Shown: positions 45,095 through 64,000 of the stretch, piece by piece | How positions within the stretch are numbered: the first letter of the stretch is position 1 | How the letters are laid out: every line of letters begins with the position of its first letter | Source of the DNA: Amphiscolops sp. MND2022 | Lineage: Eukaryota | Length of the DNA stretch: 64,000 nucleotides | Assembly (NCBI GenBank): GCA_964187785.1 | Contig: OZ076409.1 | Location: forward strand, 16,184,001 to 16,248,000 | Reading direction: 5' to 3' | Notes under the pieces: model-generated | The model's input: the letters and a program-made list of their open reading frames with translations, nothing else | Told to the model about the DNA's origin: nothing | The model's database searches: none | Position numbers and translations under genes: made by a program

Positions 45095-45228
45095 GCCTAA
45101 TTGTTGTGATAAACTTATTAAATAGGTAACTATTCCAACCCTATTGATAAGTTTTATTTGAAAGCAGACTGCGAAAGTGGTCTGAGGCCCAATTTTTGAA
45201 CAAGGAACAAGCTAGTCTGCACTAACTT
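45095..45228 (+). ncRNA. Putative SL RNA gene, variant copy
   Basis: Consensus leader; donor GTAACT; second hairpin altered (TCTGAGG); Sm site AATTTTTGA. Confidence 0.7.
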
Positions 45229-45320
45229 AAAAGTTACGCGTATTTTGACCGAGAAAATTTTCGTATCATTGTACGTAATTTTGTTGTTAAGCATATAAAG
45301 CTATTGATTCTACAATGATC

Positions 45321-45439
45321 GGCTACGACCATACCATGTTGAATGCACCGGTTCTCGTCCGATCACCGAAGTTAAACAACATAGGGCCTGGTTAGTACTT
45401 GGATGGGAGACCGTTTGGGAACACCAGGTGTTGTAGCCT
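45321..45439 (+). rRNA. 5S rRNA
   Basis: Canonical eukaryotic 5S sequence, T6 terminator. Confidence 0.98.
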
Positions 45440-46237
45440 TTTTTGTCAGAAATGTGGTTTAACTTCGGTGACAGTTTTGCAAAAGGGATCAAATTGAAAA
45501 GATAGCAAAAAACGGACAACGCCATTAGAAAGAGCGTCCAAAAAAACCCCCATGCTGAAATTTTCGCCGCCATCACTTGAATTTTCATTGAGTTATGTCA
45601 TTTTTACTATTTTCACAAAATGTGGTTTAACTTCGGTGACAGTTTTGAAAAAGGGGTCAAAATGAACAGATAGAAAAAAACGGACAACGGCATTGGAAAG
45701 AGGGCCCAAAATTACCCCTAAAACGTGTTTTTCACACTCCTGAGTCGACTTTTGATAATACATGGAATTTCATTTTTAAGCTTACTAATTTATGCTTTTC
45801 AGCATACATTTTCGTAATAGAGTCAAAATTTTGCTTTCTCACAATTTTTCTGGAATATTTTTGTTTCATCAGATGTCAATAACTTGAAACGTCGTCTTTT
45901 CATGAGAATTTCTCCTCAAAACAAGTTGTTGGCTGGTAATGGTAAGTCCGTACCGCAGATAGGACTCTCGCGCTCCAAAAATTGACTCTTTGCTTTTAGC
46001 CTAATTGTTGTGATATCCACGAGGCGTTACTCTGCCAAAATTGGAAATCTCTCATTTCTGAGTTAAATTAACTCAGCGAAACTGTCTTAAATTGTTTCTC
46101 TTCTTCAAACAACGTACCATTCTTACAAGCAATTTTATTGTACTGTATTAGAAAAACTACTGTTTTTCGAAACGTTACTTTAACTTTCTGGGCATTTTGC
46201 TCCTCATTGCCGACAAGGCAAACAATAATCCAACCTC

Positions 46238-48397
46238 ATGGATGAAACACCAACTCACGACAGTCAAAAGCCTTCGAAAACCTTGGATAATTCTCCACGA
46301 AATATTCGAAAAAACCAAGGTCAAAATTTCTTAGAAAATTCATTGGTTACAACAGGAGAAATTTCAAATACTTCGCCCAAATGTAGCAAAAAATTCTCGC
46401 CTTACAAATCACCGGCAGGCCATCCTAAAGAGGCGTCAATCTACACTTCGGATGGCAAATTTCAAGGCAGGGCTCCCCCTCAAAGCCCGAAAGACTCAAA
46501 GCGTAAAAACGCAAAAAACTTTACATCAAAAATTATCAACTCTCAGGAAACTATAAATGCCACAAACTTACCAAATTATCAACAACAACAGCCACAGTTA
46601 CCATTTACAACTCATCGATTGCCTCAAGACCCTAGCAAAAGAGTCAAAATGGTGGATTTCAACGAAGAAAATTTTACATGCAATTCTGGCCCAGAAATTA
46701 CGATAACGTATTCCGGCAACACACTGCAAAATAATATTACACCCACTTACACCAATGCAAAGCCAGCTCATCCTTCTACAACTGGCAACTCAAACTACAA
46801 CCCAAGGGAGGACTCTGGGCCAAATATCGCTCCAAACAACCCACCCAATGTGGAGAACGACCACAAAAACAAGAAAAATCCACTTCAAGAAAGTCAGGTA
46901 GAAAGCTATATTCCTACAACCCAAAACAACAAAAACTCTGAAGCTATTACTGTTGCGACCCAAATGCAACGTACTACGCTTCTCAATTTGCTAAATACAG
47001 GCCGATACGTTTCTCCTGAAGAACGTAGACGTATCCACAATGCTATTGAGGCAATAGCTAACGAAAGTTCCAGTAATGCCTTTAGTGAAATCTTTCCTGA
47101 ACTCTCTGCCCAGAATCAGCAAAAACAAACAAATGCTGATGACAGCAGTCATGCTACAAAACAACCAGCTTCCAACTACAATTCAAGAGCACTAGAACAA
47201 GCAATCGCTGCCACAATTAACGCCATAAACCCACCAGCTGAGGAACTATACACACAAACAATCAGAAATAGCGGATCCCCAAATGAATCAAAGAACAGCC
47301 ACCCACAATCCTACTCTCAGGCAACCTTTTCAAGGTCTCCTACCACGCAAGTGGTAAGCAAAATCCACAAGCTAAGAATAGTGCCTCCCTTGAGAAAAGA
47401 ACATTTCTCCAATAACAACACGTTGGAAGCCGAAATTACAAGAGCATACAAAGATATCCTAACAGCCTTCTCGCCAAATATACGAAATTTGATAACGATA
47501 TCACGAACCAACGTCAAAGTGGCAAACAAAACATACCAAGTCCTCCAGGTAATTGCTCCAGAAAGCGCTGAGCCAGACATTACCAGAATGAAACTGAATG
47601 GTCTAACGATCATGGGCAGAACTGTCTTTCCGACATCTGAGGACTTCTGGCAGGTCCGGAATTCATTCTACCCAAAAACACCGACCATACGAATCAGCAA
47701 TGTCCCAGTGCTATGCGATGACGATGCTCTAATTGAAGCTCTACAATTCCCATCATTCCTTGAATTTGGTCTAAAAGAAAGGGAAACAAAACAGACAGAA
47801 ATTGGCCCAGTTCATACTGGGAAAACTGCTATACAAATAAAGATAAACTCTGAAGATGAAGAAGCCGAGATGCGATCCTGGTCCTTTCATAAAGCCTACA
47901 CTTGCCCAGCAGAATGGCTAGGAGTCGAAATTCCAGCCAGCATACCGAAACTCCACATATGCAAGAAATGCAAAGAAGAAAAGATATCTCAATTCCGAGG
48001 CCACGAAGAGGAATGGTGCAGAATACGCAGAACCCCTCTCACTCCTCCAGTATCCGAAATCACAGAAGGGGCATCCACTAGCGTCATGCCTGAAGAAAGA
48101 AACAAAGCACAACTTCAATCAGTAGAAGCCCCAGGAGCCGAAAACATTCGGTCCGAAGATAGGCAGATCGACAGCGACAACCCAGATGAAGACGACTCTT
48201 CAGATAATCAAGATGACAACTGGCAAACAGTACAGAAGAAAGGACAGAAGAGAACCAAAAAGCAACCCTCAGAAGCTTCCAAAAACTCTCGAAACAGCAG
48301 CCCTGTGAAAGAACCCACCGCAAAGCAAGCAGCTCTACAACCAATCTGTATCAACAACAAACCCAACCCTCAAAAAACGGTAAATAATGATACTTAA
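46238..48397 (+). CDS. ORF1 protein (low-complexity N-terminus, RRM-like region, CCHC knuckle), 719 aa
   Basis: YPKTPTIRISNVP...HTGKTAIQI...CKKC-x10-H-x4-C; DNWQTVQKK basic tail as in L1/Tx1 ORF1. Confidence 0.9.
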   Translation: MDETPTHDSQKPSKTLDNSPRNIRKNQGQNFLENSLVTTGEISNTSPKCSKKFSPYKSPAGHPKEASIYTSDGKFQGRAPPQSPKDSKRKNAKNFTSKIINSQETINATNLPNYQQQQPQLPFTTHRLPQDPSKRVKMVDFNEENFTCNSGPEITITYSGNTLQNNITPTYTNAKPAHPSTTGNSNYNPREDSGPNIAPNNPPNVENDHKNKKNPLQESQVESYIPTTQNNKNSEAITVATQMQRTTLLNLLNTGRYVSPEERRRIHNAIEAIANESSSNAFSEIFPELSAQNQQKQTNADDSSHATKQPASNYNSRALEQAIAATINAINPPAEELYTQTIRNSGSPNESKNSHPQSYSQATFSRSPTTQVVSKIHKLRIVPPLRKEHFSNNNTLEAEITRAYKDILTAFSPNIRNLITISRTNVKVANKTYQVLQVIAPESAEPDITRMKLNGLTIMGRTVFPTSEDFWQVRNSFYPKTPTIRISNVPVLCDDDALIEALQFPSFLEFGLKERETKQTEIGPVHTGKTAIQIKINSEDEEAEMRSWSFHKAYTCPAEWLGVEIPASIPKLHICKKCKEEKISQFRGHEEEWCRIRRTPLTPPVSEITEGASTSVMPEERNKAQLQSVEAPGAENIRSEDRQIDSDNPDEDDSSDNQDDNWQTVQKKGQKRTKKQPSEASKNSRNSSPVKEPTAKQAALQPICINNKPNPQKTVNNDT

Positions 48398-51300
48398 TCT
48401 TGTTAATCTTGTATGTGTGAACATCAGAGGCCTTGCTAACCCAGCAAAGCTTCTCGAAATCTGTGAAAAAAGTAAAACCTTAGATAAAAACCAACAGTCA
48501 TGTATTTTCATACAAGAAACAAAATTAACCAAAATGAAGGAGGAACATATACGAATCTTAGAAAAATATAAACTAAAGAGTAAAGAGGTTCCTGCTACAG
48601 GAAACTCAGGGGGGCTTCTAACACTCATTCCAAAAAACATTGATCATCAAATACTCATGAAAAGCCTTAGCTGCCTTGCAGTGAAAATAATTAGAAATAA
48701 TTGTGAAATGGTCCTCGTTAACACATATATCAACCCCAAAGATTTCAAAGCTAGAAATTTCTGTGCGTCTATTCAGGAGCCAAACCTAAACCCATCCCAA
48801 AACATCCTCGTAGCAGGGGATTTGAATGCAATAGATGCTGAAGACATAGGAAAAACTAAAGAACTTTGCTACCCTATTAAAAACAACGATATCAGAGTAA
48901 TTCGTCATAAAATAATACAGTCTCATTCGAACTCTTTACTGTTAAAGGACATGGCAAAGGAACAAAATGAAATTTTACCGACACATTTCGATCGTAGAAC
49001 AAAAAAATTCAGCAGAATTGACTATGTCTTCAGCAACTATACGAATCAGAATCAGAAAATCGAAATTGTCAATTTCACGTCATCGGATCATAAGTGCCTC
49101 TTTTTAAAAAACCAGGAAGAAAACACCAATAATTCTCCCTCCTACTGGAAACTAAATGACTCTGTGCTGGACGATAGTAATCGCATTAATGAAATCCTGA
49201 AAACCTCAATTTCAAAGCTTCAGAACAAAAGCATGCTAACTGAAACATACGATGAATTTAAAGCAAGTATTAGAGATGACCTTCGGCAATTATGCATTGA
49301 AAAAAGAAATGCTGAAAACATTGTTGAAAAACAACTCAAAAATAACCTAAGACAACTTGAACTTAAACTTTCAGAGAGTGCAAATTCAATGGAATTAATT
49401 GCAAAAATCCAACAAGAAGTTGATCGAAAAAATGACGAGTTGGGCGTACTACTGGACAAACGCAACCAACAAGAACTGAAAAAAATAAAAAATTTCTTTA
49501 ACGAAGCCTTTGAAGGCAATCCTAAACATGTTAAACAATTAGTATCAGCCCTCCGTCTGAGCACAAGAATTTCAAAATTGGAAAAAGACAGCGGTGAAAA
49601 AATTCAATCTCAAAATGATATAGTTGCGGAACTAACCTCATTCTATAAAAAACTTTATCAGTACAATGCTCCTGGAAATCGAAGCACAACTGGGTCCTCC
49701 ATACAACAGAAGAAATACCTCGAGAAATACTTGAAAAGAATTGAGAATAGGCTTGCTACCTATGATAGGACGAATATAAATGAAGATGAAATCTTAGAAT
49801 ACGAAGTTGAAAAAGCAATTCTAAAACTGAATAAAAACAGTGCCCCAGGACCGGATGGTCTCACCGCTGGCCTTTTCCAAAATCAAATAAAATTCTTTGT
49901 GCCTTTGCTTACAGACCTATTTAATGAAATTTTAACTAAAAACCGGCCTCCTCCTTCATTTACTCTTGCAATAATCAAACTACTCCCGGAAAAATCTAAC
50001 ACAATAAAAAAAGCCTCTGATCTTAGGCCAATAAGTCTAATAAACACAGACCAAAAAATACTATCACACGTGCTAGCTAATCGAATCAAACCACTTTTTG
50101 ACACAATAATAGGACAACATCAATATGCTCATCTTACAGAACGAAATATCCACACTGCAATAACGAAAATTAGACAATATTCAACGTGCCTGAAGAAAAA
50201 CGACAGCTTATGCGCTCTAGATTTTACAAAAGCATTTGACTGCGTCAACAGGGACTTCCTAATTGCCATATTGAAACAACTACCAATATCAGAAACAACT
50301 ATAAAACTAATCGAGCAAGTATATAAAAACACAACATCCATCATTGACATCAACTCTGAATTCTCCGAACCAATAATTATTACAAAAGGGGTAAGACAAG
50401 GATGCCCCCTCTCTGCATTGCTCTTCATCCTAGTTATAGAACCTCTACTTGAAAAAATACAACGATCAAAAAAATTAAAAACACCAAATCATCAAAAAAT
50501 CATTGCCTTTGCAGATGATATAACAGTGTCCATCAAAAACAACTCAATAAACAATTTAATTAAAATCCTTGACGAGTTTGAAAATGTCTCTGGTCTCGCT
50601 ATTAATTACGAAAAGTCAGAGCTTCTAACCAAAAATCAAAAAATTTTATTCACAAACCCAGAAAAAAACTGAAAATTGTCAATCGAGTCAAAATCCTTGG
50701 AGTGTTCATAACAACAAAATCAAGTATAGACAGTGAAACAAAAAACAAGATCGACACAATTGTTAACCAATCAACAAAGTTCACCTCTCAAAACATGAGT
50801 TTCAGAGCCAGAGCTATTAACCTAGAAACATTCATTCTATCCAAAATATTCTACCAATTACGACACTTCGCGAAAAACAAATCATATATGAAAAAATTAA
50901 ACTCCAAAATAGTGGACCAGTTCTGGAATCATAAGAAACACAACGTTAATCAAGAAATTTTACATACCAGTAGACAAGAAAGCGGAATAGGACTAAAGAA
51001 TCTGAACAAAGCCGTAACAATAGCAAAAATCATGAATTTGAAAGTTTCCCTCCAAGGTAAAAACAATCAAAATAATCACAACGATTTCCAAGTTTCAAAC
51101 TGGTACAAGCAAATTGCAAAAGACCTGAAAAACGAAAACATTGAGATAATAGAAGTATCCAATGATACTCTAAAGATACAACACCTCTTTCAACCCATTG
51201 AAATAACCAGAAACACAAAATCGAGCGAAATTCTCTCAATAATACAAAAATCAACAATCAATATTGCATGCATCCCCCGTGTTGCAAAAACGGCCATGAA

Positions 51301-51706
51301 ACAAGGAATAACCATGGACTGTGTCCAGGGGGTTCTGGCAAAACTATGGAACAGAAAAAATCTACGATCATTTGATAAAAATTACATATACTGTTTCATG
51401 ATGAACGCCTACCTAGATAAACAAGAGAATTGGGGAAAAAACCTTGTTCCTCATCCTCTCTGCTTCCAATGCGGAACTCATTTCGAAACATTCAGTCATT
51501 TAATGTTTGACTGTCCACAAACACAGAACTTGAAAACAAAACTCAAATACACAAATTGGGATCAAGTCTGGAACGATAAAACAGGCAAATCACAAAAACT
51601 ACTAGTCGCCTTTATCCTATCGTCATGGTCGGAAGAAGAAGGGTCGTACCTAAAGTTTTTTCGAAACACGTATACTTCCAACTACCAACCACCTCAAGAA
51701 ACCTAA
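48387..51706 (+). CDS. ORF2 protein (AP endonuclease, RT, C-terminal Zn finger) with one frameshift near 50662-50668
   Basis: NIRGL, IQETK, AGDLN, SRIDY, SDH; APGPDG, RPISLIN, DFTKAFD, GVRQGCPLS, FADD; resumes in another frame as VKILGVF; CFQC..ETFSHLMFDC. Confidence 0.93.
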
Positions 51707-51970
51707 ACAGAGCCAACCGACACCCAAGCCGAAACACCCAAAACAACATAAAAAAACAAAAAAAAACTTCAAAAAAAAAACGAAAAAGTAATCCAGTTCA
51801 CACATACATCCTGAAGCATTTATATTATACTTATGTTACTCTCAGATTTTGTTGTACCATTTATTGTACCTTTTGTTACTTTTATTACCTATGTGGTTTT
51901 GTTGTACTTCCATTAGACTAAAGTTTGTAACATTTTTGTTAGCGTAAAGTTTACAATAAAGTCTTCAAAA

Positions 51971-52103
51971 GCCTACTTGTTGTGATAAACTTATTAAATA
52001 GGTAAGTATTCCAACCTATTGATAAGTTTTATTTGAAAGCAGACTGCGAAAGTGGTCTGCTGCCCAATTTTCGAACAAGGAACAAGCTAGTCTGCACTAA
52101 CTT
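51971..52103 (+). ncRNA. Putative SL RNA sequence regenerated downstream of the LINE
   Basis: TSD restores the leader (one substitution); donor, hairpins and Sm site present; separated from upstream spacer. Confidence 0.65.
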
Positions 52104-52195
52104 AAAAGTTACGCGTATTTTGACCGAGAAAATTTTCGTATCCTTGTACGTAATTTTGTTGTTAAGCATATAAAGCTATTGATTCTACAATGATC

Positions 52196-52314
52196 GGCTA
52201 CGACCATACCATGTTGAATGCACCGGTTCTCGTCCGATCACCGAAGTTAAACAACATAGGGCCTGGTTAGTACTTGGATGGGAGACCGCTTGGGAACACC
52301 AGGTGTTGTAGCCT
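52196..52314 (+). rRNA. 5S rRNA
   Basis: Canonical 5S, T6 terminator. Confidence 0.98.
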
Positions 52315-52873
52315 TTTTTGTCAGAAATGTGGTTTAACTTCGGATACAGTTTTGCAAAAGGTGTCAAATTGAAAAGATAGCAAAAAACGGACAACGCCAT
52401 TAGAAAGAACGTCCAAAAAAACCCCCATGCTGAAATTTTCGCCGCCATCACTTGAATTTTCATTGAGTTATGTCATTTTTACTATTTTCACAAAATGTGG
52501 TTTAACTTCGGTGACAGTTTTGCAAAAGGGGTCAAAATGAACAGATAGCAAAAAACGGACAACGGCACTGGAAAGAGGGCCCAAAATTACCCCTAAAACG
52601 TGTTTTTCACACTCCTGAGTCGACTTTTGATAATACATGGAATTTCATTTTTAAGCTTACTAATTTATGCTTTTCAGCATACATTTTCGTAATAGAGTCA
52701 AAATTTTGCTTTCTCACAATTTTTCTGGAATATTTTTGTTTCATCAGATGTCAATAACTTGAAACGTCGTCTTTTCATGAGAATTTCTCCTCAAAACAAG
52801 TTGTTGGCTGGTAATGGTAAGTCCGTACCGCAGATAGGACTCTCGCGCTCCAAAAATTGACTCTTTGCTTTTA

Positions 52874-53007
52874 GCCTAATTGTTGTGATAAACTTATTAA
52901 ATAGGTAAGTATTCCAACCCTATTGATAAGTTTTATTTGAAAGCAGACTGCGAAAGTGGTCTGCTGCCCAATTTTTGAACAAGGAACAAGCTAGTCTGCA
53001 CTAACTT
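52874..53007 (+). ncRNA. Putative SL RNA gene, intact consensus copy
   Basis: Leader GCCTAATTGTTGTGATAAACTTATTAAATAG|GTAAGT; stem ATAAACTTATTAAATAGG/CCTATTGATAAGTTTTAT; GAAA-loop hairpin AGCAGAC..GTCTGCT; Sm site AATTTTTGA; 3' hairpin; ends approximate. Confidence 0.8.
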
Positions 53008-53099
53008 AAAAGTTACGCGTATTTTGACCGAGAAAATTTTCGTATCATTGTACGTAATTTTGTTGTTAAGCATATAAAGCTATTGATTCTACAATGATC

Positions 53100-53218
53100 G
53101 GCTACGACCATACCATGTTGAATGCACCGGTTCTCGTCCGATCACCGAAGTTAAACAACATAGGGCCTGGTTAGTACTTGGATGGGAGACCGCTTGGGAA
53201 CACCAGGTGTTGTAGCCT
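53100..53218 (+). rRNA. 5S rRNA
   Basis: Canonical 5S, T6 terminator; TATAAA about 27 nt upstream. Confidence 0.98.
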
Positions 53219-53794
53219 TTTTTGTCAGAAATGTGGTTTAACTTCGGTGACAGTTTTGCAAAAGGGGTAAAATTGAAAAGATAGCAAAAAACGGACAACG
53301 CCATTAGAAAGAGCGTCCAAAAAAACCCCCATGCTGAAATTTTCGCCGCCATCACTTGAATTTTCATTGAGTTATGTCATTTTTACTATTTTCACAAAAT
53401 GTGGTTTAACTTCAATGACAGTTTTGCAAAAGGAGTCAAAATGACCAGATAGCAAAAAACGGACAACGGCATTGGAAAGAGGGCCCAAAATTACCCCTAA
53501 AACGTGTTTTTCACACTCCTGAGTCGACTTTTGATAATACATGGAATTTCATTTTTAAGCTTACTAATTTATGCTTTTCAGCATACATTTTCGTAATAGA
53601 GTCAAAATTTTGCTTTCTCGCAATTTTTCTGGAATAAGTTTGTTTCATCAGATGTCAATAACTTGAAACGTCGTCTTTTCATGAGAATTTCTCCTCAAAA
53701 CAAGTTGTTGGCTGGTAATGGTAAGTCCGTACCGCAGATAGGACTCTCGCGCTCCAAAAATTGACTCTTTGCTTTTAGCCTAATTGTTGTGATA

Positions 53795-55777
53795 CGGCGT
53801 TACTCTGTCAGCCTGCAAACTTTGTTTGCACAGCGCCATCTTGCAAATTTTGCAGCAAAAGTTGCAAAAGTAATGACTAATTTGAACACGAGTGAGCTTG
53901 ATCAACATCATAATGAAAATGTTGAGCAAAATTGTTACAAAAATGCAGTTATTTCCTTGTCGAAATCGAACTCAAATATGGACAAATTACCAATTATTAT
54001 CAACTTTGCCTTACCACTGACATCTGAAATGTTCAAAAACAGCAAATTACTGGATTCAATGTTTGTGGAAGCTGTTATGGCCGTCAAAAACCGACTTAAC
54101 TCCAATGAAATTACCATCTTCAAAACTACAATTTTACGCAACAAAGGCAATTTGAAGTGTATTACTGTGATCATTCCTTAAAAACTTGAAAATGCAGCTT
54201 CCTCTCTTATTCACGAGGGCATTACTCTTCGCAATCGGAAAATACGGCCTTATTCTGTCAATTATTCCAACCCGAACAACAATGTCTATCCAAAAAGATT
54301 ACCAATATCTTTCCGAAACCTACCACACTTTCTGACGGATGAGGATATTTTGAGTAGCTGTGGTCTTCAAAACTTCAAATTTAGTAGCAAAATTTTTCAT
54401 CAACAACGACGACTTCCTGATAGCAGCCTTTTTTATACAGGAGAGGCAAGAATTACAGTTTTAATTGACAATGAGAATGAGGAAAGTTTACTACAAAACT
54501 GGGCCAATAATGCATATGACAAAATGTTTAGTTCCAGTGGCATTTTTTTCAAATGTTGCTGTATCCCACTCCTCGAATGCTCTTTATGCGTCAATGAGAA
54601 CCTTCCCAGTGCTCATCAACAATCAAGATGCCCAAAACAACTATCAGACGAACAGCAAATACAGAAAAACAGTGAATCTCAGAACCAGAAGTTAACAACT
54701 GACTACGTTATGGAAACTGCAGAAACAGAGCCAATGTCTAATGAACCTGAACTGTCAGATTCAGATGATGCTGAACCAATCTCAAAGGCACCAAAGCAGA
54801 CCGATGATGGTACTGAAACCGAATGCAACAACAACGTGGCAGAAACTGAACAACCATGCATTAACAACTCAAAGAAAGATACCATTCCTATGCAAAAACC
54901 TAAACTAATGCATCGCTCAACTGAATGGAAATCCTCAACAGACCTTGCCCGAAATCAAGCAGATGACCAACAGTCAACGGCAAAGCATGGATATCATGAA
55001 TACCCATTCTTTTTGGAAAAGAAACAAAACAAAATACTGGCACCCGAAACTATTTTCAACGAAATACCTCCTATAAAAGAACATGTGATCAAAACCCAAC
55101 AAACTTCTGGCTACATCAATACACTAGACAAGGAAAAGAAAATTCAAAGGACCTTTTCACTCGTACAACCACTGAAGAAAGAAAAACTCGAAGATCTTTT
55201 ATCTGAATCAAACTGGAAACATTCTGACTCTAACACTATTTTAACTTCTCATTTGGAATTTTACTCATTGATCCGGAAGTTTGATCCATTCTATGATGCT
55301 ACAAACCACCAAATTTACACTATTAATCTGGAGAATAAAATTGTACAAGTTTTCACTGCAGTTGAAAACTTATACAATGAAAACAAAAACTAAACTGAAA
55401 AATTTCGGACCTTTTCGACTGGAACTTTAAAGTTCTAAATCTCTACAATACCATCATCAATCAACCCAATTCCCAATTCTTTTCGAGCACTAGTTGTTCG
55501 CAACCTGTATGCAAAAAACGGGTTTTGAAAACAAACTCCTTCCAGGAGCAAACATCTTTTTTCATACATTCTCCAAACTACATTATACTAACTTCATACC
55601 TAAAAAAAAAACATTCCCATTTTGGCGCTTTCTCAAAAATGCCATAACCAAGCATCTTCATCTACATACTTCAGCTTTTTCAACACTTCAGTTACTCATA
55701 TACTCATTTTATACCTATACCTTAGACTTCATTACTTTTTACTTGTAAATTCTCAGTTTTCAATAAATTCTTTAAAA
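53795..55777 (+). mobile_element. Non-autonomous ORF1-only retroelement, family A copy 1
   Basis: Perfect 17-bp TSD 53778-53794 and 55778-55794; no RT or endonuclease; AATAAA..TTTAAAA end. Confidence 0.9.
53873..55393 (+). pseudogene. Family A ORF1-like gene with one premature stop
   Basis: TAA at 54179-54181 where copy 2 has TAC; otherwise colinear with 60578-62098. Confidence 0.88.
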
Positions 55778-55914
55778 GCCTAATTGTTGTGATAAACTTA
55801 TTAAATAGGTAAGTATTCCAACCCTATTGATAAGTTTTATTATTTGAAAGCAGACTGCGAAAGTGGTCTGCTGCCCAATTTTTGAACAAGGAACAAGCTA
55901 GTCTGCACTAACTT
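55778..55914 (+). ncRNA. Putative SL RNA sequence downstream of insertion
   Basis: Consensus with 3-nt insertion (TTATTATTTG). Confidence 0.65.
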
Positions 55915-56006
55915 AAAAGTTACGCGTATTTTGACCGAGAAAATTTTCGTATCATTGTACGTAATTTTGTTGTTAAGCATATAAAGCTATTGATTCTACA
56001 ATGATC

Positions 56007-56125
56007 GGCTACGACCATACCATGTTGAATGCACCGGTTCTCGTCCGATCACCGAAGTTAAACAACATAGGGCCTGGTTAGTACTTGGATGGGAGACCGC
56101 TTGGGAACACCAGGTGTTGTAGCCT
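56007..56125 (+). rRNA. 5S rRNA
   Basis: Canonical 5S. Confidence 0.98.
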
Positions 56126-56701
56126 TTTTTGTCAGAAATGTGGTTTAACTTCGGTGACAGTTTTGCAAAAGGGGTCAAATTGAAAAGATAGCAAAAAACG
56201 GACAACGCCATTAGAAAGAGCGTCCAAAAAAACCCCCATGCTGAAATTTTCGCCGCCCTCACTTGAATTTTCATTGAGTTATGTCATTTTTACTATTTTC
56301 ACAAAATGTGGTTTAACTTCGGTGACAGTTTTGCAAAAGGGGTCAAAATGAACAGATAGCAAAAAACGGACAACGGCATTGGAAAGAGGGCCCAAAATTA
56401 CCCCTAAAACGTGTTTTTCACACTCCTGAGTCGACTTTTGATAATACATGGAATTTCATTTTTAAGCTTACTAATTTATGCTTTTCAGCATACATTTTCG
56501 TAATAGAGTCAAAATTTTGCTTTCTCGCAATTTTTCTGGAATATTTTTGTTTCATCAGATGTCAATAACTTGAAACGTCGTCTTTTCATGAGAATTTCTC
56601 CTCAAAACAAGTTGTTGGCTGGTAATGGTAAGTCCGTACCGCAGATAGGACTCTCGCGCTCCAAAAATTGACTCTTTGCTTTTAGCCTAATTGTTGTGAT
56701 A

Positions 56702-58132
56702 CTGCGGTAGCAGCAATTATTTGACCAAATTCATTCTCTCTCGCATCTGCTGAGGCAGGGACGATTATCTCACTTGAAAGAATGCCTAATTTCCTTACAT
56801 TGGACTTTATAATACCTTACTCCAAAGAAGAAATTACTAATCCTTCTCTAAAGCTTGTTACTTACAAAAGCTTTCTTTGCTCGTTACTTAAATGTTTACC
56901 TAGTGACGCTGTTAAACGCGTGACCTGCATGAAATCGCACGTGTACAAACATGCGCCGCACGAAAAGAAACTTGAGAGCGTCAAAGTTATCGGTCCAATT
57001 TCATTACAAAACGAGTTTAATTCCATTATTTCTGATGGAATTTTGTTCAAAACTCGCAAGATTTATGCTCTACAAAACCATGATGTTACGTCCAATGCTT
57101 ACCCCAAGCAATTTACGATCAAATTTCGTAATTTACCACACTTCTTTTCTGATACCGATGTTATTTCGGCTTGCAATTTGAAAGATTTCAAACTTTCAAA
57201 GTTACGACACCAATTAGAGAAACTTTCTGAGGAAATTGAAACCTACACAGGCATTTGTTATGCGGATGTGGAAATCCAGGACGAAGCCCAATTACAACAG
57301 CTCATTTCATGGAATGAAACCAGCTTTTTGAACAAATACTATCTAGAAGAAATTCCATTTAAATGCCAAATTCAAATATTACTACAATGCGATTTCTGCA
57401 AACAAAAGAAGCTCCAGTTTTTGGGGCACCATGTACGCCAATGCAAAGCCAAAAAGACACAATTAGAACCAGAATCTGAGGAAGATAGCATCTCAACTAC
57501 GAAAACAAATGAAGAAAAAGAACTAGAAGCCACAGATGCAAACAAGAATAACCCAGAACATACTTTCTATATTGATTTAGAAAAATGCCAAATTCGAAAC
57601 ATACATGACATGGACGAACTCCATAAAGGATTTAGCAAGCTTCTTGCTTTACAGGAATGCAAGCCTGTGAATGTCTTGAATGACAACAATATAGTGATAA
57701 ACCAACTACGACATGTGAAGAATATTACTGAAGAAAAACAGCGGAAGCTTTTCAAACAACAAAACATATGGGGAAGTCCTTCATCAGACGTCCCAATCAA
57801 GAACTTCTCAGAGTTTTGTGAACTCCGGGGAAAGCTAGATGTGTTCTACGACTCAACAAAAGGCGAAGAAACCCTTTACCTGATGAACCTATCCAAGAAA
57901 GTGACCCACATTTTCAAAAAGAAACAACAACCAAACTAACAAAACTACATTATACTAATTTTCAAACTTTGATTTCCATGTTAAATCAAAACTCTCATAT
58001 TATACAATCATCACCAAGTCTTTCATTTACTTAATACTATAAGTATGCTAAGTTATTCATACTCAACACTTTAGTATTAATGTAAAGACTATTTGATTTA
58101 TAAAGGCAAATTTCCAAATACATTCTTTAAAA
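56702..58132 (+). mobile_element. Non-autonomous ORF1-only retroelement, family B copy 1
   Basis: TSD 56685-56701 and 58133-58149; single ORF; TTCTTTAAAA end. Confidence 0.9.
56782..57939 (+). CDS. Family B ORF1-like protein, 385 aa
   Basis: YPKQFTIKFRNLPHF, YTGICYADV, CDFC-x9-H-x4-C, plus C-terminal domain shared with family A. Confidence 0.88.
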   Translation: MPNFLTLDFIIPYSKEEITNPSLKLVTYKSFLCSLLKCLPSDAVKRVTCMKSHVYKHAPHEKKLESVKVIGPISLQNEFNSIISDGILFKTRKIYALQNHDVTSNAYPKQFTIKFRNLPHFFSDTDVISACNLKDFKLSKLRHQLEKLSEEIETYTGICYADVEIQDEAQLQQLISWNETSFLNKYYLEEIPFKCQIQILLQCDFCKQKKLQFLGHHVRQCKAKKTQLEPESEEDSISTTKTNEEKELEATDANKNNPEHTFYIDLEKCQIRNIHDMDELHKGFSKLLALQECKPVNVLNDNNIVINQLRHVKNITEEKQRKLFKQQNIWGSPSSDVPIKNFSEFCELRGKLDVFYDSTKGEETLYLMNLSKKVTHIFKKKQQPN

Positions 58133-58149
58133 GCCTAATTGTTGTGATA

Positions 58150-59579
58150 CTGCGGTAGCAGCAATTATTTGACCAAATTATTCTCTCTCGCATCTGCTGA
58201 GGCAGGGACGATTATCTCACTTGAAAGAATGCCTAATTTCCTTACATTGGACTTTATAATACCTTACTCCAAAGAAGAAATTACTAATCCTTCTCTAAAG
58301 CTTGTTACTTACAAAAGCTTTCTTTGCTCGTTACTTAATTGTTTACCTAGTGACGCTGTTAAACGCGTGACCTGCATGAAATCGCACGTGTACAAACATG
58401 CGCCGTACGAAAAGAAACTTGAGAGCGTCAAAGTTATCGGTCCAATTTCATTACAAAACCAGTTTAATTCCATTATTTCTGATGGAATTTTGTTCAAAAA
58501 TCGCAAGATTTATGCTCTACAAAACCATGATGTTACGTCCAATGCTTACCCCAAGCAATTTACGATCAAATTTCGTAATTTACCACACTTCTTTCCTGAT
58601 ACCGATGTTATTTCGGCTTGCAATTTGAAAGATTTCAAACTTTCAAAGTTACGACACCAATTAGAGAAACTTTCTGAGGAAATTGAAACCTACACAGGCA
58701 TTTGTTATGCGGATGTGGAAATCCAGGACGAAGCCCAATTACAACAGCTCATTTCATGGAATGAAACCAGCTTTTTGAACAAATACTATCTAGAAGAAAT
58801 TCCATTTAAATGCCAAATTCAAACATTACTACAATGCGATTTCTGCAGACAAAAGAAGCTCCAGTTTTTGGGGCACCATGTACGCCAATGCAAAGCCAAA
58901 AAGACACAATTAGAACCAGAATCTGAGGAAGATAGCATCTCAACCACGAAAACAAATGAAGAAAAAGAACTAGAAGCCACAGATGCAAACAAGAATAACA
59001 CAGAACATACTTTCTATATTGATTTAGAAAAATGCCAAATTCGAAACATACATGACATGGACGAACTCCATAAAGGATTTAGCAAGCTTCTTGCTTTACA
59101 GGAATGCAAGCCTGTGAATGTCTTGAATGACAACAATGTAGTGATAAACCAACTACGACATGTGAAGAATATTACTGAAGAAAAACAGCGGAAGCTTTTC
59201 AAACAACAAAACAGATGGGGAAGTCCTTCATCAGACGTCCCAATCAAGAACTTCTCAGAGTTTTGTGAACTCCGGGGAAAGCTAGATGTGTTCTACGACT
59301 CAACAAAAGGCGAAGAAACCCTTTACCTGATGAACCTATCCAAGAAAGTGACCCACATTTTCAAAAAGAAACAACAACCAAACTAACAAAACTACATTAT
59401 ACTAATTTTCAAACTTTGATTTCCATGTTAAATCAAAACTCTCATATTATACAATCATCACCAAGTCTTTCATTTACTCAATACTATAAGTATGCTAAGT
59501 TATTCATACTCAACACTTTAGTATTAATGTAAAGACTATTTGATTTATAAAGGCAAATTTCCAAATACATTCTTTAAAA
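58150..59579 (+). mobile_element. Non-autonomous ORF1-only retroelement, family B copy 2 (tandem)
   Basis: TSD 58133-58149 and 59580-59596; near-identical to copy 1. Confidence 0.9.
58229..59386 (+). CDS. Family B ORF1-like protein, 385 aa
   Basis: First ATG at 58229 (track starts at an upstream TTG); 10 aa differences from copy 1. Confidence 0.88.
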   Translation: MPNFLTLDFIIPYSKEEITNPSLKLVTYKSFLCSLLNCLPSDAVKRVTCMKSHVYKHAPYEKKLESVKVIGPISLQNQFNSIISDGILFKNRKIYALQNHDVTSNAYPKQFTIKFRNLPHFFPDTDVISACNLKDFKLSKLRHQLEKLSEEIETYTGICYADVEIQDEAQLQQLISWNETSFLNKYYLEEIPFKCQIQTLLQCDFCRQKKLQFLGHHVRQCKAKKTQLEPESEEDSISTTKTNEEKELEATDANKNNTEHTFYIDLEKCQIRNIHDMDELHKGFSKLLALQECKPVNVLNDNNVVINQLRHVKNITEEKQRKLFKQQNRWGSPSSDVPIKNFSEFCELRGKLDVFYDSTKGEETLYLMNLSKKVTHIFKKKQQPN

Positions 59580-59713
59580 GCCTAATTGTTGTGATAAACT
59601 TATTAAATTGGTAAGTATTCCAACCCTATTGATAAGTTTTATTTGAAAGCAGACTGCGAAAGTGGTCTGCTGCCCAATTTTTGAACAAGGAACAAGCTAG
59701 TCTGCACTAACTT
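59580..59713 (+). ncRNA. Putative SL RNA sequence downstream of insertion
   Basis: Leader ends AAATTG|GTAAGT (variant); hairpins and Sm site intact. Confidence 0.65.
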
Positions 59714-59805
59714 AAAAGTTACGCGTATTTTGACCGAGAAAATTTTCGTATCATTGTACGTAATTTTGTTGTTAAGCATATAAAGCTATTGATTCTACAA
59801 TGATC

Positions 59806-59924
59806 GGCTACGACCATACCATGTTGAATGCACCGGTTCTCGTCCGATCACCGAAGTTAAACAACATAGGGCCTGGTTAGTACTTGGATGGGAGACCGCT
59901 TGGGAACACCAGGTGTTGTAGCCT
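59806..59924 (+). rRNA. 5S rRNA
   Basis: Canonical 5S. Confidence 0.98.
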
Positions 59925-60499
59925 TTTTTGTCAGAAATGTGGTTTAACTTCGGTGACAGTTTTGCAAAAGGGGTCAAATTGAAAAGATAGCAAAAAACGG
60001 ACAACGCCATTAGAAAGAGCGTCCAAAAAAACCCCCATGCTGAAATTTTCGCCGCCATCACTTGAATTTTCATTGAGTTATGTCATTTTTACTATTTTCA
60101 CAAAATGTGGTTTAACTTCGGTGACAGTTTTGCAAAAGGGGTCAAAATGAACAGATAGCAAAAAACGGACAACGGCATTGGAAAGAGGGCCCAAAATTAC
60201 CCCTAAAACGTGTTTTTCACACTCCTGAGTCGACTTTTGATAATACATGGAATTTCATTTTAAGCTTACTAATTTATGCTTTTCAGCATACATTTTCGTA
60301 ATAGAGTCAAAATTTTGCTTTCTCGCAATTTTTCTGGAATATTTTTGTTTCATCAGATGTCAATAACTTGAAACGTCGTCTTTTCATGAGAATTTCTCCT
60401 CAAAACAAGTTGTTGGCTGGTAATGGTAAGTCCGTACCGCAGATAGGACTCTCGCGCTCCAAAAATTGACTCTTTGCTTTTAGCCTAATTGTTGTGATA

Positions 60500-62480
60500 C
60501 GGCGTTACTCTGTCAGCCTGCAAACTTTGTTTGCACAGCGCCATCTTGCAAATTTTGCAGCAAAAGTTGCAAAAGTAATGACTAATTTGAACACGAGTGA
60601 GCTTGATCAACATCATAATGAAAATGTTGAGCAAAATTGTTACAAAAATGCAGTTATTTCCTTGTCGAAATCGAACTCAAATATGGACAAATTACCAATT
60701 ATTATCAACTTTGCCTTACCACTGACATCTGAAATGTTCAAAAACAGCAAATTACTGGATTCAATGTTTGTGGAAGCTGTTATGGCTGTCAAAAACCGAC
60801 TTAACTCCAATGAAATTACCATCTTCAAAACTACAATTTTACGCAACAAAGGCAATTTGAAGTGTATTACTGTGATCATTCCTTACAAACTTGAAAATGC
60901 AGCTTCCTCTCTTATTCACGAGGGCATTACTCTTCGCAATCGGAAAATACGGCCTTATTCTGTCAATTATTCCAACCCGAACAACAATGTCTATCCAAAA
61001 AGATTACCAATATCTTTCCGAAACCTACCACACTTTCTGACGGATGAGGAAATTTTGAGTAGCTGTGGTCTTCAAAACTTCAAATTTAGTAGCAAAATTT
61101 TTCATCAACAACGACGACTTCCTGATAGCAGCCTTTTTTATACAGGAGAGGCAAGAATTACAGTTTTAATTGACAATGAGAATGAGGAAAGTTTACTACA
61201 AAACTGGGCCAATAATGCATATGACAAAATGTTTAGTTCCAGTGGCATTTTTTTCAAATGTTGCTGTATCCCACTCCTCGAATGCTCTTTATGCGTCAAT
61301 GAGAACCTTCCCAGTGCTCATCAACAATCAAGATGCCCAAAACAACTATCAGACGAACAGCAAATACAGAAAAACAGTGAATCTCAGAACCAGAAGTTAA
61401 CAACTGACTACGTTATGGAAACTGCAGAAACAGAGCCAATGTCTAATGAACCTGAACTGTCAGATTCAGATGATGCTGAACCAATCTCAAAGGCGCCAAA
61501 GCAGACCGATGATGGTACTGAAACCGAATGCAATAACAACGTGGCAGAAACTGAACAACCATGCATTAACAACTCAAAGAAAGATACCATTCCTATGCAA
61601 AAACCTAAACTAATGCATCGCTCAACTGAATGGGAATCCTCAACAGACCTTGCCCGAAATCAAGCAGATGACCAACAGTCAACGGCAAAGCATGGATATC
61701 ATGAATACCCATTCTTTTTGGAAAAGAAACAAAACAAAATACTGGCACCCGAAACTATTTTCAACGAAATACCTCCTATAAAAGAACATGTGATCAAAAC
61801 CCAACAAACTTCTGGCTACATCAATACACTAGACAAGGAAAAGAAAATTGAAAGGACCTTTTCACTCGTACAACCACTGAAGAAAGAAAAACTCGAAGAT
61901 CTTTTATCTGAATCAAACTGGAAACATTCTGACTCTAACACTATTTTAACTTCTCATTTTGAATTTTACTCATTGATCCGGAAGTTTGACCCATTCTATG
62001 ATGCTAAAAACCACCAAATTTACACTATTAATCTGGAGAATAAAACTGTACAAGTTTTCACTGCAGTTGAAAACTTATACAATGAAAACGAAAACTAAAC
62101 TGAAAAAATTCGGACCTTTTTGACTGGAACTTTAAAGTTCTAAATCTCTACAATACCATCATCAATCAACCCAATTCCCAATTCTTTTCGAGCACTAGTT
62201 GTTCGCAACCTGTATGCAAAAAACGGGTTTTGAGAACAAACTCCTTCCAGGAGCAAACATCTTTTTTCATACATTCTCCAAACTACATTATACTAACTTC
62301 ATACCAAAAAAAAACATTCCCATTTTGGCGCTTTCTCAAAAATGCCATAACCAAGCATCTTCATCTACATACTTAAGTTTTTTCAACACTTCAGTTACTC
62401 ATATACTCATTTTATACATATACCTTAGACTTCATTACTTTTTACTTGTAAATTCTCAGTTTTCAATAAATTCTTTAAAA
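60500..62480 (+). mobile_element. Non-autonomous ORF1-only retroelement, family A copy 2
   Basis: Perfect TSD 60483-60499 and 62481-62497. Confidence 0.9.
60578..62098 (+). CDS. Family A ORF1-like protein, 506 aa from first ATG
   Basis: YPKRLPISFRNLPHF, YTGEARITV, CSLC-x8-H-x4-C, acidic linker, C-terminal domain; track start GTG lies inside the TSD. Confidence 0.88.
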   Translation: MTNLNTSELDQHHNENVEQNCYKNAVISLSKSNSNMDKLPIIINFALPLTSEMFKNSKLLDSMFVEAVMAVKNRLNSNEITIFKTTILRNKGNLKCITVIIPYKLENAASSLIHEGITLRNRKIRPYSVNYSNPNNNVYPKRLPISFRNLPHFLTDEEILSSCGLQNFKFSSKIFHQQRRLPDSSLFYTGEARITVLIDNENEESLLQNWANNAYDKMFSSSGIFFKCCCIPLLECSLCVNENLPSAHQQSRCPKQLSDEQQIQKNSESQNQKLTTDYVMETAETEPMSNEPELSDSDDAEPISKAPKQTDDGTETECNNNVAETEQPCINNSKKDTIPMQKPKLMHRSTEWESSTDLARNQADDQQSTAKHGYHEYPFFLEKKQNKILAPETIFNEIPPIKEHVIKTQQTSGYINTLDKEKKIERTFSLVQPLKKEKLEDLLSESNWKHSDSNTILTSHFEFYSLIRKFDPFYDAKNHQIYTINLENKTVQVFTAVENLYNENEN

Positions 62481-62614
62481 GCCTAATTGTTGTGATAAAC
62501 TTATTAAATAGGTAAGTATTCCAACCCTATTGATAAGTTTTATTTGAAAGCAGACTGCGAAAGTGGTCTGCTGCCCAATTTTTGAACAAGGAACAAGCTA
62601 GTCTGCACTAACTT
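62481..62614 (+). ncRNA. Putative SL RNA sequence downstream of insertion
   Basis: Consensus leader, donor, hairpins, Sm site. Confidence 0.65.
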
Positions 62615-62706
62615 AAAAGTTACGCGTATTTTGACCGAGAAAATTTTCGTATCATTGTACGTAATTTTGTTGTTAAGCATATAAAGCTATTGATTCTACA
62701 ATGATC

Positions 62707-62825
62707 GGCTACGACCATACCATGTTGAATGCACCGGTTCTCGTCCGATCACCGAAGTTAAACAACATAGGGCCTGGTTAGTACTTGGATGGGAGACCGC
62801 TTGGGAACACCAGGTGTTGTAGCCT
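62707..62825 (+). rRNA. 5S rRNA
   Basis: Canonical 5S. Confidence 0.98.
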
Positions 62826-63401
62826 TTTTTGTCAGAAATGTGGTTTAACTTCGGTGACAGTTTTGCAAAAGGGGTCAAATTGAAAAGATAGCAAAAAACG
62901 AACAACGCCATTAGAAAGAGCGTCCAAAAAAACCCCCATGCTGAAATTTTCGCCGCCATCACTTGAATTTTCATTGAGTTATGTCATTTTTACTATTTTC
63001 ACAAAATGTGGTTTAACTTCGGTGACAGTTTTGCAAAAGGGGTCAAAATGAACAGATAGCAAAAAACGGACAACGGCACTGGAAAGAGGGCCCAAAATTA
63101 CCCCTAAAACGTGTTTTTCACACTCCTGAGTCGACTTTTGATAATACATGGAATTTCATTTTTAAGCTTACTAATTTATGCTTTTCAGCATACATTTTCG
63201 TAATAGAGTCAAAATTTTGCTTTCTCGCAATTTTTCTGGAATATTTTTGTTTCATCAGATGTCAATAACTTGAAACGTCGTCTTTTCATGAGAATTTCTC
63301 CTCAAAACAAGTTGTTGGCTGGTAATGGTAAGTCCGTACCGCAGATAGGACTCTCGCGCTCCAAAAATTGACTCTTTGCTTTTAGCCTAATTGTTGTGAT
63401 A

Positions 63402-64000
63402 CTGCGTGTGTCAGCAATTATTTGCTAACTCTACTCTCACTGCTGCGGCAGAGAAGACGAAAATTACCTGAACAATGCCTTTATTGACAGCAGAATTCAT
63501 CATTCCTTACACAAAAGAAGAAATTACCAGCCCAAACATAAAGCAAGCTGTTTACAAAGAATTCCTTTGCAAGCTTTTACATGCTTTATCGCCTACTCAT
63601 ATTGACAGCGTGACATGCATTAAATCGTATGTGTCCAAACATGCGCCAGCGCATGAGCATGAAAAGAAGCTTGAATGCATCAAAATTATTGCTCCAAACT
63701 CGATAGAAAACGACTTCAAAAACCTACTTCTTAAAGGAATTCCTTACAAAAACCGGATAATTTATGCATTCCAAAACAGTGATGTTTATTCTAACTCCTA
63801 CCCAAAGCAATTCACTTTGAAATTCCGCAATTTACCACACTTTTTAGAAGATGGAGAGATCGTGGAGGCTTGTAATCTGCAAGAGTACAAAATTTCCAAA
63901 TTACGCCACCAAAGAGTAAGAATTTCTGACGACATCGAAGCCTTTACTGGAATCTGTTATGCTGAAATAGAGATTGCCAATCAATGCCAATTAGAAAACA
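63402..64000 (+). mobile_element. Family C insertion (related to B), truncated by window end
   Basis: Starts right after GCCTAATTGTTGTGATA (63385-63401); 5' end CTGCG..CAGCAATTATTTG resembles family B. Confidence 0.85.
63475..64000 (+). CDS. Family C ORF1-like protein, partial (absent from ORF track)
   Basis: Hand translation MPLLTAEFIIPYTKEEITSP...YPKQFTLKFRNLPHFL...FTGICYAEI, open to window end; colinear with family B. Confidence 0.85.
   Translation, partial: MPLLTAEFIIPYTKEEITSPNIKQAVYKEFLCKLLHALSPTHIDSVTCIKSYVSKHAPAHEHEKKLECIKIIAPNSIENDFKNLLLKGIPYKNRIIYAFQNSDVYSNSYPKQFTLKFRNLPHFLEDGEIVEACNLQEYKISKLRHQRVRISDDIEAFTGICYAEIEIANQCQLEN

Follow-up and report, generated by a model that had tools for sequence, protein, structure and literature searches.

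How does a single nucleotide position in a spliced leader (SL) RNA gene come to hold a whole series of insertions, only one of which encodes a reverse transcriptase (RT)? The question is raised by a 64,000-nucleotide stretch of the genome of the acoel Amphiscolops sp. MND2022 (C1:16184001-16248000 of the 1.07-Gb assembly GCA_964187785.1, hereafter the window), the last 20 kb of which hold the edge of a tandem array of SL RNA and 5S rRNA genes that continues for several hundred kb and was traced to C1:16.45 Mb. An earlier note on this DNA described six insertions, namely one long interspersed nuclear element (LINE) and three RT-less protein-coding families (A, B and C), and proposed that the LINE mobilises the others. 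Having followed these elements through the genome, we consider it very probable that the SL genes are home to a guild of autonomous LINEs and non-autonomous families with only an ORF1-type open reading frame (ORF), which would follow the insertion cycle proposed below.

Uninterrupted units of the array are 903–907 bp long, as measured by the spacing of a 17-mer, GCCTAATTGTTGTGATA, which occurs 13 times in the window between 44023 and 63401, always on the + strand (11 exact copies, two with one mismatch), and in none of 100 shuffles of the window. At uninterrupted sites the 17-mer continues as AACTTATTAAATAG and then a GTAAGT donor, with an Sm-type site, AATTTTTGA, ~65 nt past the donor and a 5S rRNA gene 225 nt downstream in the unit, which Rfam matched at 113–117 bits in all seven uninterrupted units of the window. 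From the 17-mer to the donor the sequence is, letter for letter, the published SL of Symsagittifera roscoffensis (bioRxiv 10.1101/2022.08.27.505549; PMC9911081; both in part), so the target is a real SL RNA gene. SL-headed retrocopies dispersed in the genome have an A before the 17-mer in 8/8 sampled cases, which suggests that the SL RNA probably starts one base ahead of it.

All six insertions in the window lie in one orientation, each starting directly after a 17-mer, and mapping of the 17-mer reproduced to the base the boundaries drawn for them in the earlier note (Table 1). The account given there of their 3′ ends needs two amendments: the five complete insertions do end in AAAA followed by a second 17-mer and the rest of the unit, but the 17-mer copy downstream of the LINE carries one mismatch, and the AAAA belongs to a conserved terminal motif rather than to a poly(A) tail, no long poly(A) being found at any element end. 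The left edge of the duplication puts the bottom-strand nick where the SL gene begins (...TTTTA|GCC), and its length of 17 bp puts the top-strand cut directly after SL nt 17. An inserted element has the SL promoter with SL nt 1–17 ahead of it and, behind it, an SL gene that is complete but has lost its promoter. Truncation at the 5′ end does not remove the upstream 17-mer (it is kept by a 1748-bp piece of LINE1, the LINE of the window, and by fragments of 65 and 27 bp), the 17-mer therefore derives from the target. Elements can also stand head to tail with the 17-mer alone between them, as B–B in the window and D–B, A–A–A and C–LINE1 piece–A elsewhere, and one element, J, has an extra AGCCTAATTGTTG following the 17-mer, as if the leader had also been copied in. 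Taken with stray copies outside the arrays (see below), 5′ truncations with an exact 3′ junction and the 17-bp duplication bear out the target-primed mode of reverse transcription that had been invoked.

The SL sequence at the 5′ side might alternatively come from the copying of SL trans-spliced mRNAs, as in the SL-headed LINEs of dinoflagellates and euglenids, and retrocopies beginning with the whole SL are indeed plentiful in this genome: there are ~900 dispersed SL 17-mers outside SL genes, and 8/8 of those sampled consist of the whole SL joined to unrelated sequence, so that retroposition of trans-spliced RNAs must be common. The array insertions differ from these in carrying only SL nt 1–17 of 31–32, not the whole exon up to the donor, in having the upstream 17-mer even when 5′-truncated, and in the recurrence of the 17-mer past each 3′ end, where it is joined to the rest of the SL gene. 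We rejected a trans-spliced origin of the leader because just 17 of 31–32 nt are present, and regard it as extremely improbable.

That the insertions share one nucleotide position, as had been claimed, was borne out in several arrays on three chromosomes by a census covering about 300 kb of array together with whole-genome pattern counts. The 17-mer occurs 2297 times in the genome and 1225 times with its native upstream flank; 1133 of these 1225 SL genes are uninterrupted and 92 (7.5%) are interrupted at their 5′ side. The 3′ junction, TCTTYAAAA plus the 17-mer, was found 120 times, and among the 100 of these junctions that were listed 99 lie in SL arrays (C1 15.41–15.47 Mb, C1 16.24–16.67 Mb, C12 56.09–56.49 Mb and C13 13.12–13.22 Mb), the odd one being in a two-unit SL/5S mini-cluster on C2. 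When the 130 kb that follow the window, together with parts of other arrays, were cut at the 17-mer, 139 segments resulted: 78 plain units, 33 copies of A, 7 of B, 5 of C and 1 of D, 6 segments of units followed by E, one each of LINE1, F, G, J and K, one 5′-truncated C, one 5′-truncated LINE1 and two fragments of just 65 and 27 bp; another LINE (I) is interrupted by the end of a locus. Family A has at least 42 full-length matches (40 of 96 candidates scored), with 42/42 long matches full length and in arrays, and its type of head junction lies inside arrays at 46/49 sites. The genome holds 8 copies of B, all with open frames, about 19 of C, 18 of them with open frames, and a single D. LINE1 is present in three full-length copies and one truncated copy, with a relative of ~70% identity in 6 copies in arrays, and E in 19 full or nearly full copies and one truncated copy of 99–100% identity (36/36 candidates scored), all in arrays or on unplaced array contigs. 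One LINE and three families is hence too low a count, and should read at least five LINE lineages and at least seven RT-less families. Most copies of A and E do not lie at unrelated sites but in arrays; a later-found family, M, lies mostly outside them.

Assembly of long tandem arrays is difficult, and the copies may here be misordered or miscounted, yet an origin of the array and its insertions as an assembly artefact has a probability close to nil: several chromosomes and unplaced contigs carry the same junctions with sequence variants, the ORFs are coherent, and related proteins are found in independent public assemblies.

The at least five LINE lineages in the guild are L1/Tx1-like, combining an apurinic/apyrimidinic-type endonuclease (APE) with RT, and two of them have intact copies. 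Each encodes a Type-I ORF1, with an RNA recognition motif (RRM) and a CCHC knuckle, and an ORF2 with N-terminal APE and RT. The window copy of LINE1 does encode ORF2, as had been read from it, but in frameshifted form (761 aa and 303 aa in different frames), intact copies of LINE1 and E being found elsewhere: a LINE1 copy on C12 has both ORFs intact (719 and 1106 aa) and the 17-mer on both sides, whilst E (4927 bp) encodes an ORF1 of 443 aa and an ORF2 of 1083 aa, intact in 6/6 and 2/6 of the sampled copies, respectively. F and G are degenerate. The lineages are well separated, with mutual identities of 33–54% in ORF2 and 30–52% in ORF1. Pfam detects RVT_1 in the LINE ORF2s at 102–114 bits, and Exo_endo_phos (cut-off 24.5 bits) above the cut-off in E (30.1) and below it in LINE1 (19–20); the catalytic motifs QETK, GD(F/L)N, R(I/L)DY, SDH and (Y/F)ADD are present (GDLN, RIDY and FADD in the window LINE1), and the ORF2 C-terminus gives a weak match to zf-RVT PF13966 (19.5–21.7 bits, under the cut-off of 27.5). 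Pfam finds nothing in the LINE ORF1s, which carry a CX2CX10HX4C knuckle. Named public matches of the LINE proteins are unclassified ‘reverse transcriptase’ entries, and the closest solved structure to the LINE RT is human L1 ORF2p (E 1.2e-56), whereas R2 proteins score 5e-21 or weaker. The LINEs thus fit the L1 group, and their Type-I ORF1 and target habit make Tx1 the putative clade.

The at least seven RT-less families fall into two groups, A/D/J/M and B/C/K. Each element has one long ORF (506 aa in A, 385 in B, 387 in C and 395 in D). Pfam finds no trace of endonuclease or RT in A, B, C or D, and a tblastn search with six LINE ORF2 proteins against seven RT-less elements gave a best E of 0.09, the restriction of both activities to the LINE thus standing as first described. 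What the RT-less ORFs do resemble is ORF1, and the view of A, B and C as protein-coding relatives of LINE ORF1 was upheld: they align with the LINE ORF1 core over ~230 residues, with the motifs IPP..KE, VIAP, YPK, NLP and TG in common and a CX2C...H...C knuckle that is lost in D. BLASTP against the LINE ORF1s gives E-values of 1e-5 to 1e-19 at 20–29% identity (1e-12 to 1e-13 at 21–29% for A, B and C against the window LINE1 ORF1), whilst A and D share 49% and B and C 45% identity. A maximum-likelihood ORF1 tree of nine rows (unrooted; without J and K, which are broken, and without M, a later find) places A, B, C and D on one side of a 100/100 branch, with the five LINE ORF1s on the other, and the parts that the RT-less elements have in common with the resident LINEs are short head and tail modules only. 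A recent internal-deletion origin of A–D, which would have undone the reading in the earlier note, is ruled out by the 100/100 branch, the 21–29% identity and the lack of an endonuclease or RT remnant. Because the tree is unrooted it does not establish that the RT-less lineages are older than the LINE split; recent deletion from a resident LINE is excluded all the same.

These ORFs have been kept as proteins. Intact frames are found in 26/33 copies of A, 7/7 of B and 5/5 of C, and the tested pairs of families are under purifying selection, with between-family pN of 0.34–0.45 against saturated pS of 0.72–0.81, and dN/dS of ~0.2 where computable. In the public protein set there are seven B/C-type lineages (381–403 aa, 45–59% identity), one protein of which, P0123, has a best match of only 59% in the present genome and so comes from another; together with the divergence of the B/C-type lineages this indicates that the RT-less lineage is old and has been maintained as protein. 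An AlphaFold model of the B protein (from the nine-sequence alignment, mean pLDDT 77) shows four parts: a pair of RRM-like domains, the knuckle, an acidic linker predicted to be disordered, and a C-terminal domain modelled with confidence at about residues 262–381 (pLDDT 83–89). Top Foldseek matches are tandem-RRM proteins (HuD 1fxl, E 2e-4), VIA-align recognises residues 98–204 as an RRM (Z 7.0, rmsd 2.4 Å over 78 residues), and the matches listed by both programs fall on the RRM part; the ESM Atlas holds no usable match for the C-terminal domain. This domain is private to the RT-less side, being kept in A, B, C, M and five further database proteins and absent from the LINE ORF1s.

A conserved private domain and long-term purifying selection are also what might be expected if the ORF1-only proteins acted against the LINEs, either as dominant-negative or competing ORF1 proteins, in the manner of defective interfering particles, or as a brake kept by the host, and RT-less copies (A at least 46, C ~19, B 8) do outnumber RT-encoding ones (E 19–20, LINE1 3–4, its relative 6). 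Yet every cis feature of a mobile copy is retained by the RT-less elements, and M is found inserted at stray sites, so that they still behave as parasites of the machinery; the data do not separate helping from hindering. We think a role in interference unlikely.

Evidence that the RT-less families move, and on which machinery, comes from their ends. The terminal TCTTYAAAA is present in 11 of 13 elements compared, whilst the 3′ untranslated regions (UTRs) are otherwise unrelated, with no broader 3′ UTR likeness to the LINEs for A, B or D. The last 43 nt of C are those of LINE1 (43/43), and short 5′ motifs are held in common by A and LINE1 (GGCGTTACTCTG) and by D and E (repeats of GACTTCTGA). 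Family A consists of two subfamilies, which differ at 5/25 terminal nt versus 33/1958 elsewhere (Fisher p = 8e-5), one with a tail like that of E, the other with a tail like that of LINE1, and both occur on C12 and C13; for C and the A subfamilies the assignment of partners by tail class is suggestive.

Family M, whose ORF is D-like (45%) and whose 5′ UTR is of the A type, occupies ordinary DNA on C6, C10 and C3, where three stray copies begin with the SL 17-mer. All four M tails examined are followed by GCC (GCCG, GCCT, GCCT, GCCA), as is an old stray LINE1-like 3′ piece on C8 (GCCT), the off-target junctions thus repeating the first three bases of the SL target in 5/5 cases. Stray M copies with SL leader, tail and GCC show that RNA of an RT-less element gets reverse transcribed and integrated, the 17-mer on them that the template had SL nt 1–17, as expected of a transcript from the SL promoter, and the common GCC junction that the chemistry of integration is the same for members with and without RT. 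The RT-less elements therefore retrotranspose, probably from SL-promoter transcripts and with borrowed ORF2 protein (ORF2p).

The RT might still be borrowed from outside the SL-resident LINEs, for example from another LINE clade, and the ~900 SL-headed retrocopies of cellular and repeat RNAs mentioned above do mean that some LINE acts in trans in this genome. Such a source would have to match the SL LINEs in target nucleotide, 17-bp duplication and terminal motif, down to the 43 nt that C has in common with LINE1 and to the AAAA|GCC junction of stray M and LINE1-like copies (5/5), and the elements are without poly(A), unlike L1-type processed retrocopies. We see little probability in an outside RT, and trans-mobilisation by the ORF2p of the resident LINEs is what we infer.

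Several observations weigh against this account. Sister copies of A recur as four pairs at a spacing of 36.2 kb, and over a 7-kb stretch the two repeats match at 99.87%; many copies are therefore array duplicates, and independent insertions number well below the copy count. In the extreme, the RT-less families could be immobile LINE relics which entered once and were multiplied solely by recombination (unequal crossing-over, gene conversion, exchange between arrays), a view favoured by this higher-order duplication and by the crowding of insertions at array edges, the interior of the C1 array consisting of pure 904-bp units. Immobile relics would not, however, leave stray M copies in unrelated DNA with SL leader, tail and GCC junction, nor 5′-truncated copies, nor head-to-tail copies only 17 bp apart; the same families are inserted in arrays of three different flank variants on three chromosomes, their ORFs stay open under purifying selection across 45–59% divergence, and the tree of A copies is star-like. 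We hold the relic explanation to be very improbable. The first reading, of separate insertions, nevertheless fails for the many copies that arose by duplication of the array.

Further points tell against the account. The tail classes TTCTTT and GTCTTC are bridged by J, K and M, which are intermediate, with T/C varying within M, and as the tail is near-identical across lineages and variable in M, tails assign no RT-less family to a given LINE; the tail switch between the A subfamilies may be drift plus selection. When the terminal 100 nt were folded for LINE1, A, B, C, D and E, none did better than shuffles (z −1.7 to +1.5), which lends a stem-loop recognition signal no support. SL genes holding a copy of M were not encountered, and among public RNA runs none with family A and its flanks was listed. 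Within-family pN/pS values of A, B and C (0.51, 0.59 and 0.26) come from intact copies only and are for that reason biased downward. Finally, family E is joined to the target after 11 or 14 nt only, at either of two GTT repeats, so that the site of the top-strand cut may vary with the family. Both E junction variants are found across three flank types, which points to microhomology joining in several independent events, and for this reason we dropped an inherited leader as the explanation of the short 5′ junction.

The cycle that we propose would begin with transcription of the element from the promoter of the interrupted SL gene, giving an RNA that starts with SL nt 1–17, for which the support is indirect. 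This RNA would be bound by its own ORF1-type protein and, if RT-less, also by ORF2p translated from LINE RNA. ORF2p would then nick the bottom strand at the first SL base (...A|GCC), as the observed junctions indicate, and reverse transcription would start at the tail ...TCTTYAAAA without poly(A), perhaps aided by read-through SL sequence. A top-strand cut 17 nt downstream would produce the 17-bp duplication seen at the insertions, and the SL leader of the cDNA template, matching the duplicated target, may favour exact full-length 5′ joins. Duplication at the level of the array, seen directly in the repeats, would then raise copy number. Beyond this we tentatively entertain a wider reading, which as a whole is possible but doubtful: the RT-less families would be old, self-sustaining, protein-coding hyperparasites, diversified alongside several LINE lineages and across species; their private C-terminal domain would capture foreign ORF2p or displace the LINE's own ORF1 protein; and the SL gene would serve both as a safe multicopy target and as the source of a strong snRNA-type promoter and a 17-nt leader. 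The SL leader may in addition make element RNAs resemble trans-spliced mRNAs to the cap and translation machinery.

Insertion into SL genes is itself well documented. SLACS, CZAR, CRE1 and CRE2 of trypanosomatids and NeSL-1 of Caenorhabditis are LINEs that target the SL exon (PMC4640811, PMC8869645; both in part), and the early-branching group of target-specific LINEs encodes a restriction-like endonuclease (PMC4640811, in part). The acoel LINEs are like SLACS, CZAR, CRE and NeSL-1 in being non-LTR (long terminal repeat) elements at one SL-exon position in tandem SL RNA genes, but whereas SLACS and NeSL carry the restriction-like enzyme, they have an N-terminal APE and an RT nearest to L1, with no PD-(D/E)xK endonuclease found downstream of the RT. 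With APE in its place they are analogues of CRE/NeSL in target and not members of that group, and represent an independent, convergent capture of the SL target. SLACS is reportedly transcribed from the SL promoter, and we know of no ORF1-only partners of SLACS or NeSL.

The Tx1 clade comprises APE-encoding LINEs of the L1 group that insert sequence-specifically into small-RNA genes or repeats, such as Tx1L, Keno (U2 snRNA genes), Mutsu (5S rRNA genes), Kibi, Koshi and Dewa (PMC4640811, in part), and a Type-I ORF1 protein with RRM and CCHC is consistent with Tx1 in non-mammalian animals (PMC5203782, in part). Tx1 targets are U2, 5S and repeats, whereas that of the acoel elements is the SL RNA gene, which is new for the group in the literature searched. 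To our knowledge a retinue of multiple ORF1-only families has not been described for Tx1 LINEs.

The earlier note knew of no described target-specific system of several families. That statement did not survive, as HeT-A with TART and TAHRE at Drosophila telomeres is one; HeT-A is a non-autonomous LINE with ORF1 present, its protein likely multimerising with that of the autonomous partner, and HAL1 (half-L1 of mammals) and Ag-Sponge (mosquito, CR1-derived) are further non-autonomous elements with ORF1 only (PMC5786205, in part). HeT-A/TART/TAHRE resembles the acoel system as a target-specific guild in which the commonest member has only Gag/ORF1 and takes RT from relatives, as the RT-less families of the acoel probably do. 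HeT-A and TART however belong to the Jockey clade, target chromosome ends and have a role in host telomeres, whereas the acoel elements have L1-group LINEs, an internal site cut by endonuclease and a target-site duplication; their numerous RT-less lineages fall into two deep groups, and nothing points to a benefit for the host. HAL1 and Ag-Sponge are dispersed and are described as internal deletions of their partner, whilst the acoel families are site-specific, form their own clade at 21–29% identity, and in A, B, C and M carry an extra domain. R2 and R1 of ribosomal DNA are site-specific in a tandem RNA gene and co-transcribed with the host gene, with partners that share their 3′ end. R2 is also among the clades that yield bipartite non-autonomous LINEs (PMC5786205, in part). 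The short internally deleted elements (SIDEs) of R2/R1 are short and non-coding, and R2 has a restriction-like endonuclease, in contrast to the protein-coding partners and APE-type LINEs of the acoel.

The literature searched, which did not include Repbase and Dfam, yielded neither an SL-targeting LINE of the APE type nor any work on transposons in the SL genes of acoels, and the acoel genome paper contains no mention of non-LTR elements. Two things are new here: an L1/Tx1-like APE LINE radiation on SL genes, in Acoela, and an ORF1-only clade that has diversified, persisted for long under selection and acquired a domain not seen in the LINEs. The LINEs would be the first APE-type (L1/Tx1-like) group specialised on SL RNA genes, convergent with the restriction-endonuclease LINEs of trypanosomes and nematodes, and in a phylum with almost no transposon biology. 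With several autonomous and many ORF1-only lineages gathered on one target, with one 10-nt tail and short exchangeable heads, and with many copies intact and recent (98–100% identity), the guild offers a natural system for studying parasites of parasites, and how RT-less RNAs win ORF2p despite its cis-preference; the fixed target and defined 17-bp duplication simplify biochemical tests of both nicks. For the annotation of acoel genomes, it accounts for the ~7.5% of SL genes that are interrupted and for abundant unnamed ORFs in public protein sets.

Table 1 Features of the SL/5S array and its insertions, in window coordinates.
Feature	Position	Strand	Basis or remark
Edge of tandem array, units of ~904 bp (SL RNA gene + 5S rRNA gene)	44022..64000	+	17-mer spacing, Rfam 5S
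Target-site duplication of 17 bp, upstream copy (SL nt 1–17)	45999..46015	+	Flank comparison
Recurrences of the 17-mer	51971, 53778, 55778, 56685, 58133, 59580, 60483, 62481, 63385	+	Flank comparison
LINE1, L1/Tx1-like, defective copy, 5955 bp	46016..51970	+	ORFs, Pfam
LINE1 ORF1, 719 aa; core aa ~373–625 homologous to RT-less ORFs, CX2CX10HX4C knuckle	46238..48397	+	
LINE1 ORF2, APE endonuclease + RT	48387..51706	+	Pfam RVT_1 2.8e-32, Exo_endo_phos 4e-4
LINE1 ORF2 parts in different frames (APE + RT; C-terminal)	48387-50672; 50795-51706	+	Compared with intact copy
Uninterrupted SL RNA gene, example	52873..52985	+	Sequence and fold; 52985 is not a mapped 3′ end
SL exon (A + 31 nt), then donor GTAAGT	52873-52904	+	Sm site 52970-52978
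5S rRNA gene, one of 7 in the window	53100..53218	+	Rfam RF00001, 117.5 bits
Family A, broken ORF (102 aa + 289 aa)	53795..55777	+	
Family B, copy 1	56702..58132	+	ORF 56782-57939, 385 aa
Family B, copy 2	58150..59579	+	ORF 58229-59386; head to tail with copy 1, only the 17-mer between
Family A, intact copy	60500..62480	+	ORF 60578-62098, 506 aa
Terminal motif TTCTTTAAAA	62471..62480	+	Joined directly to target GCC
Family C, 5′ part	63402..64000	+	Element ends at 65005, beyond the window

Further members of the guild are seen as junctions or matches only (C1:15.317 Mb, C12:56.617 Mb, C1:16641386 and others): another array contains an A-like family whose head is a variant, one SL gene holds an element that combines a D-like ORF and a LINE1-like head, and a LINE family has ~70% identity to LINE1. 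At C5:70.35–70.42 Mb there is a cluster of degenerate LINE1-, D- and B/C-like pieces with many stops, perhaps the remains of an SL array that decayed long ago, or else a graveyard of transposons. Within LINE1 itself, nt 559–1041 (window 46574–47056, the N-terminal extension of ORF1) are 73–75% identical to a ~480-bp dispersed repeat found on all chromosomes (571 candidates at first look), a module shared with, or captured from, another repeat. Among the dispersed SL sequences, one repeat family (15 sites on C1–C6; 15/20 sampled) has a variant SL, with A to G at nt 18 and sometimes also at 19, 23 and 26, followed by CTTCAGAGATGGCAATG; it reads as a retroposed, SL-trans-spliced repeat, and its variant SL may reflect a second SL gene type or RNA editing.

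Upstream of the array, the window contains ~21 copies of a 447-bp satellite (88–90% matches) at 34091–43748, directly before the SL/5S units, and 13 kb from the array edge two copies of a 167-bp repeat internal to the SL/5S unit (30774–31130), which are array spacer gone astray. A Ty3/gypsy-like LTR retrotransposon has its genes at ~14400–21900 on the + strand (gag PF03732, RT-RNaseH and integrase), the last two within an 838-aa ORF at 19368–21884, and a separate RT fragment is found at 8320–9108 on the − strand. A strong negative GC skew at 14–30 kb spans the Ty3/gypsy-like region.

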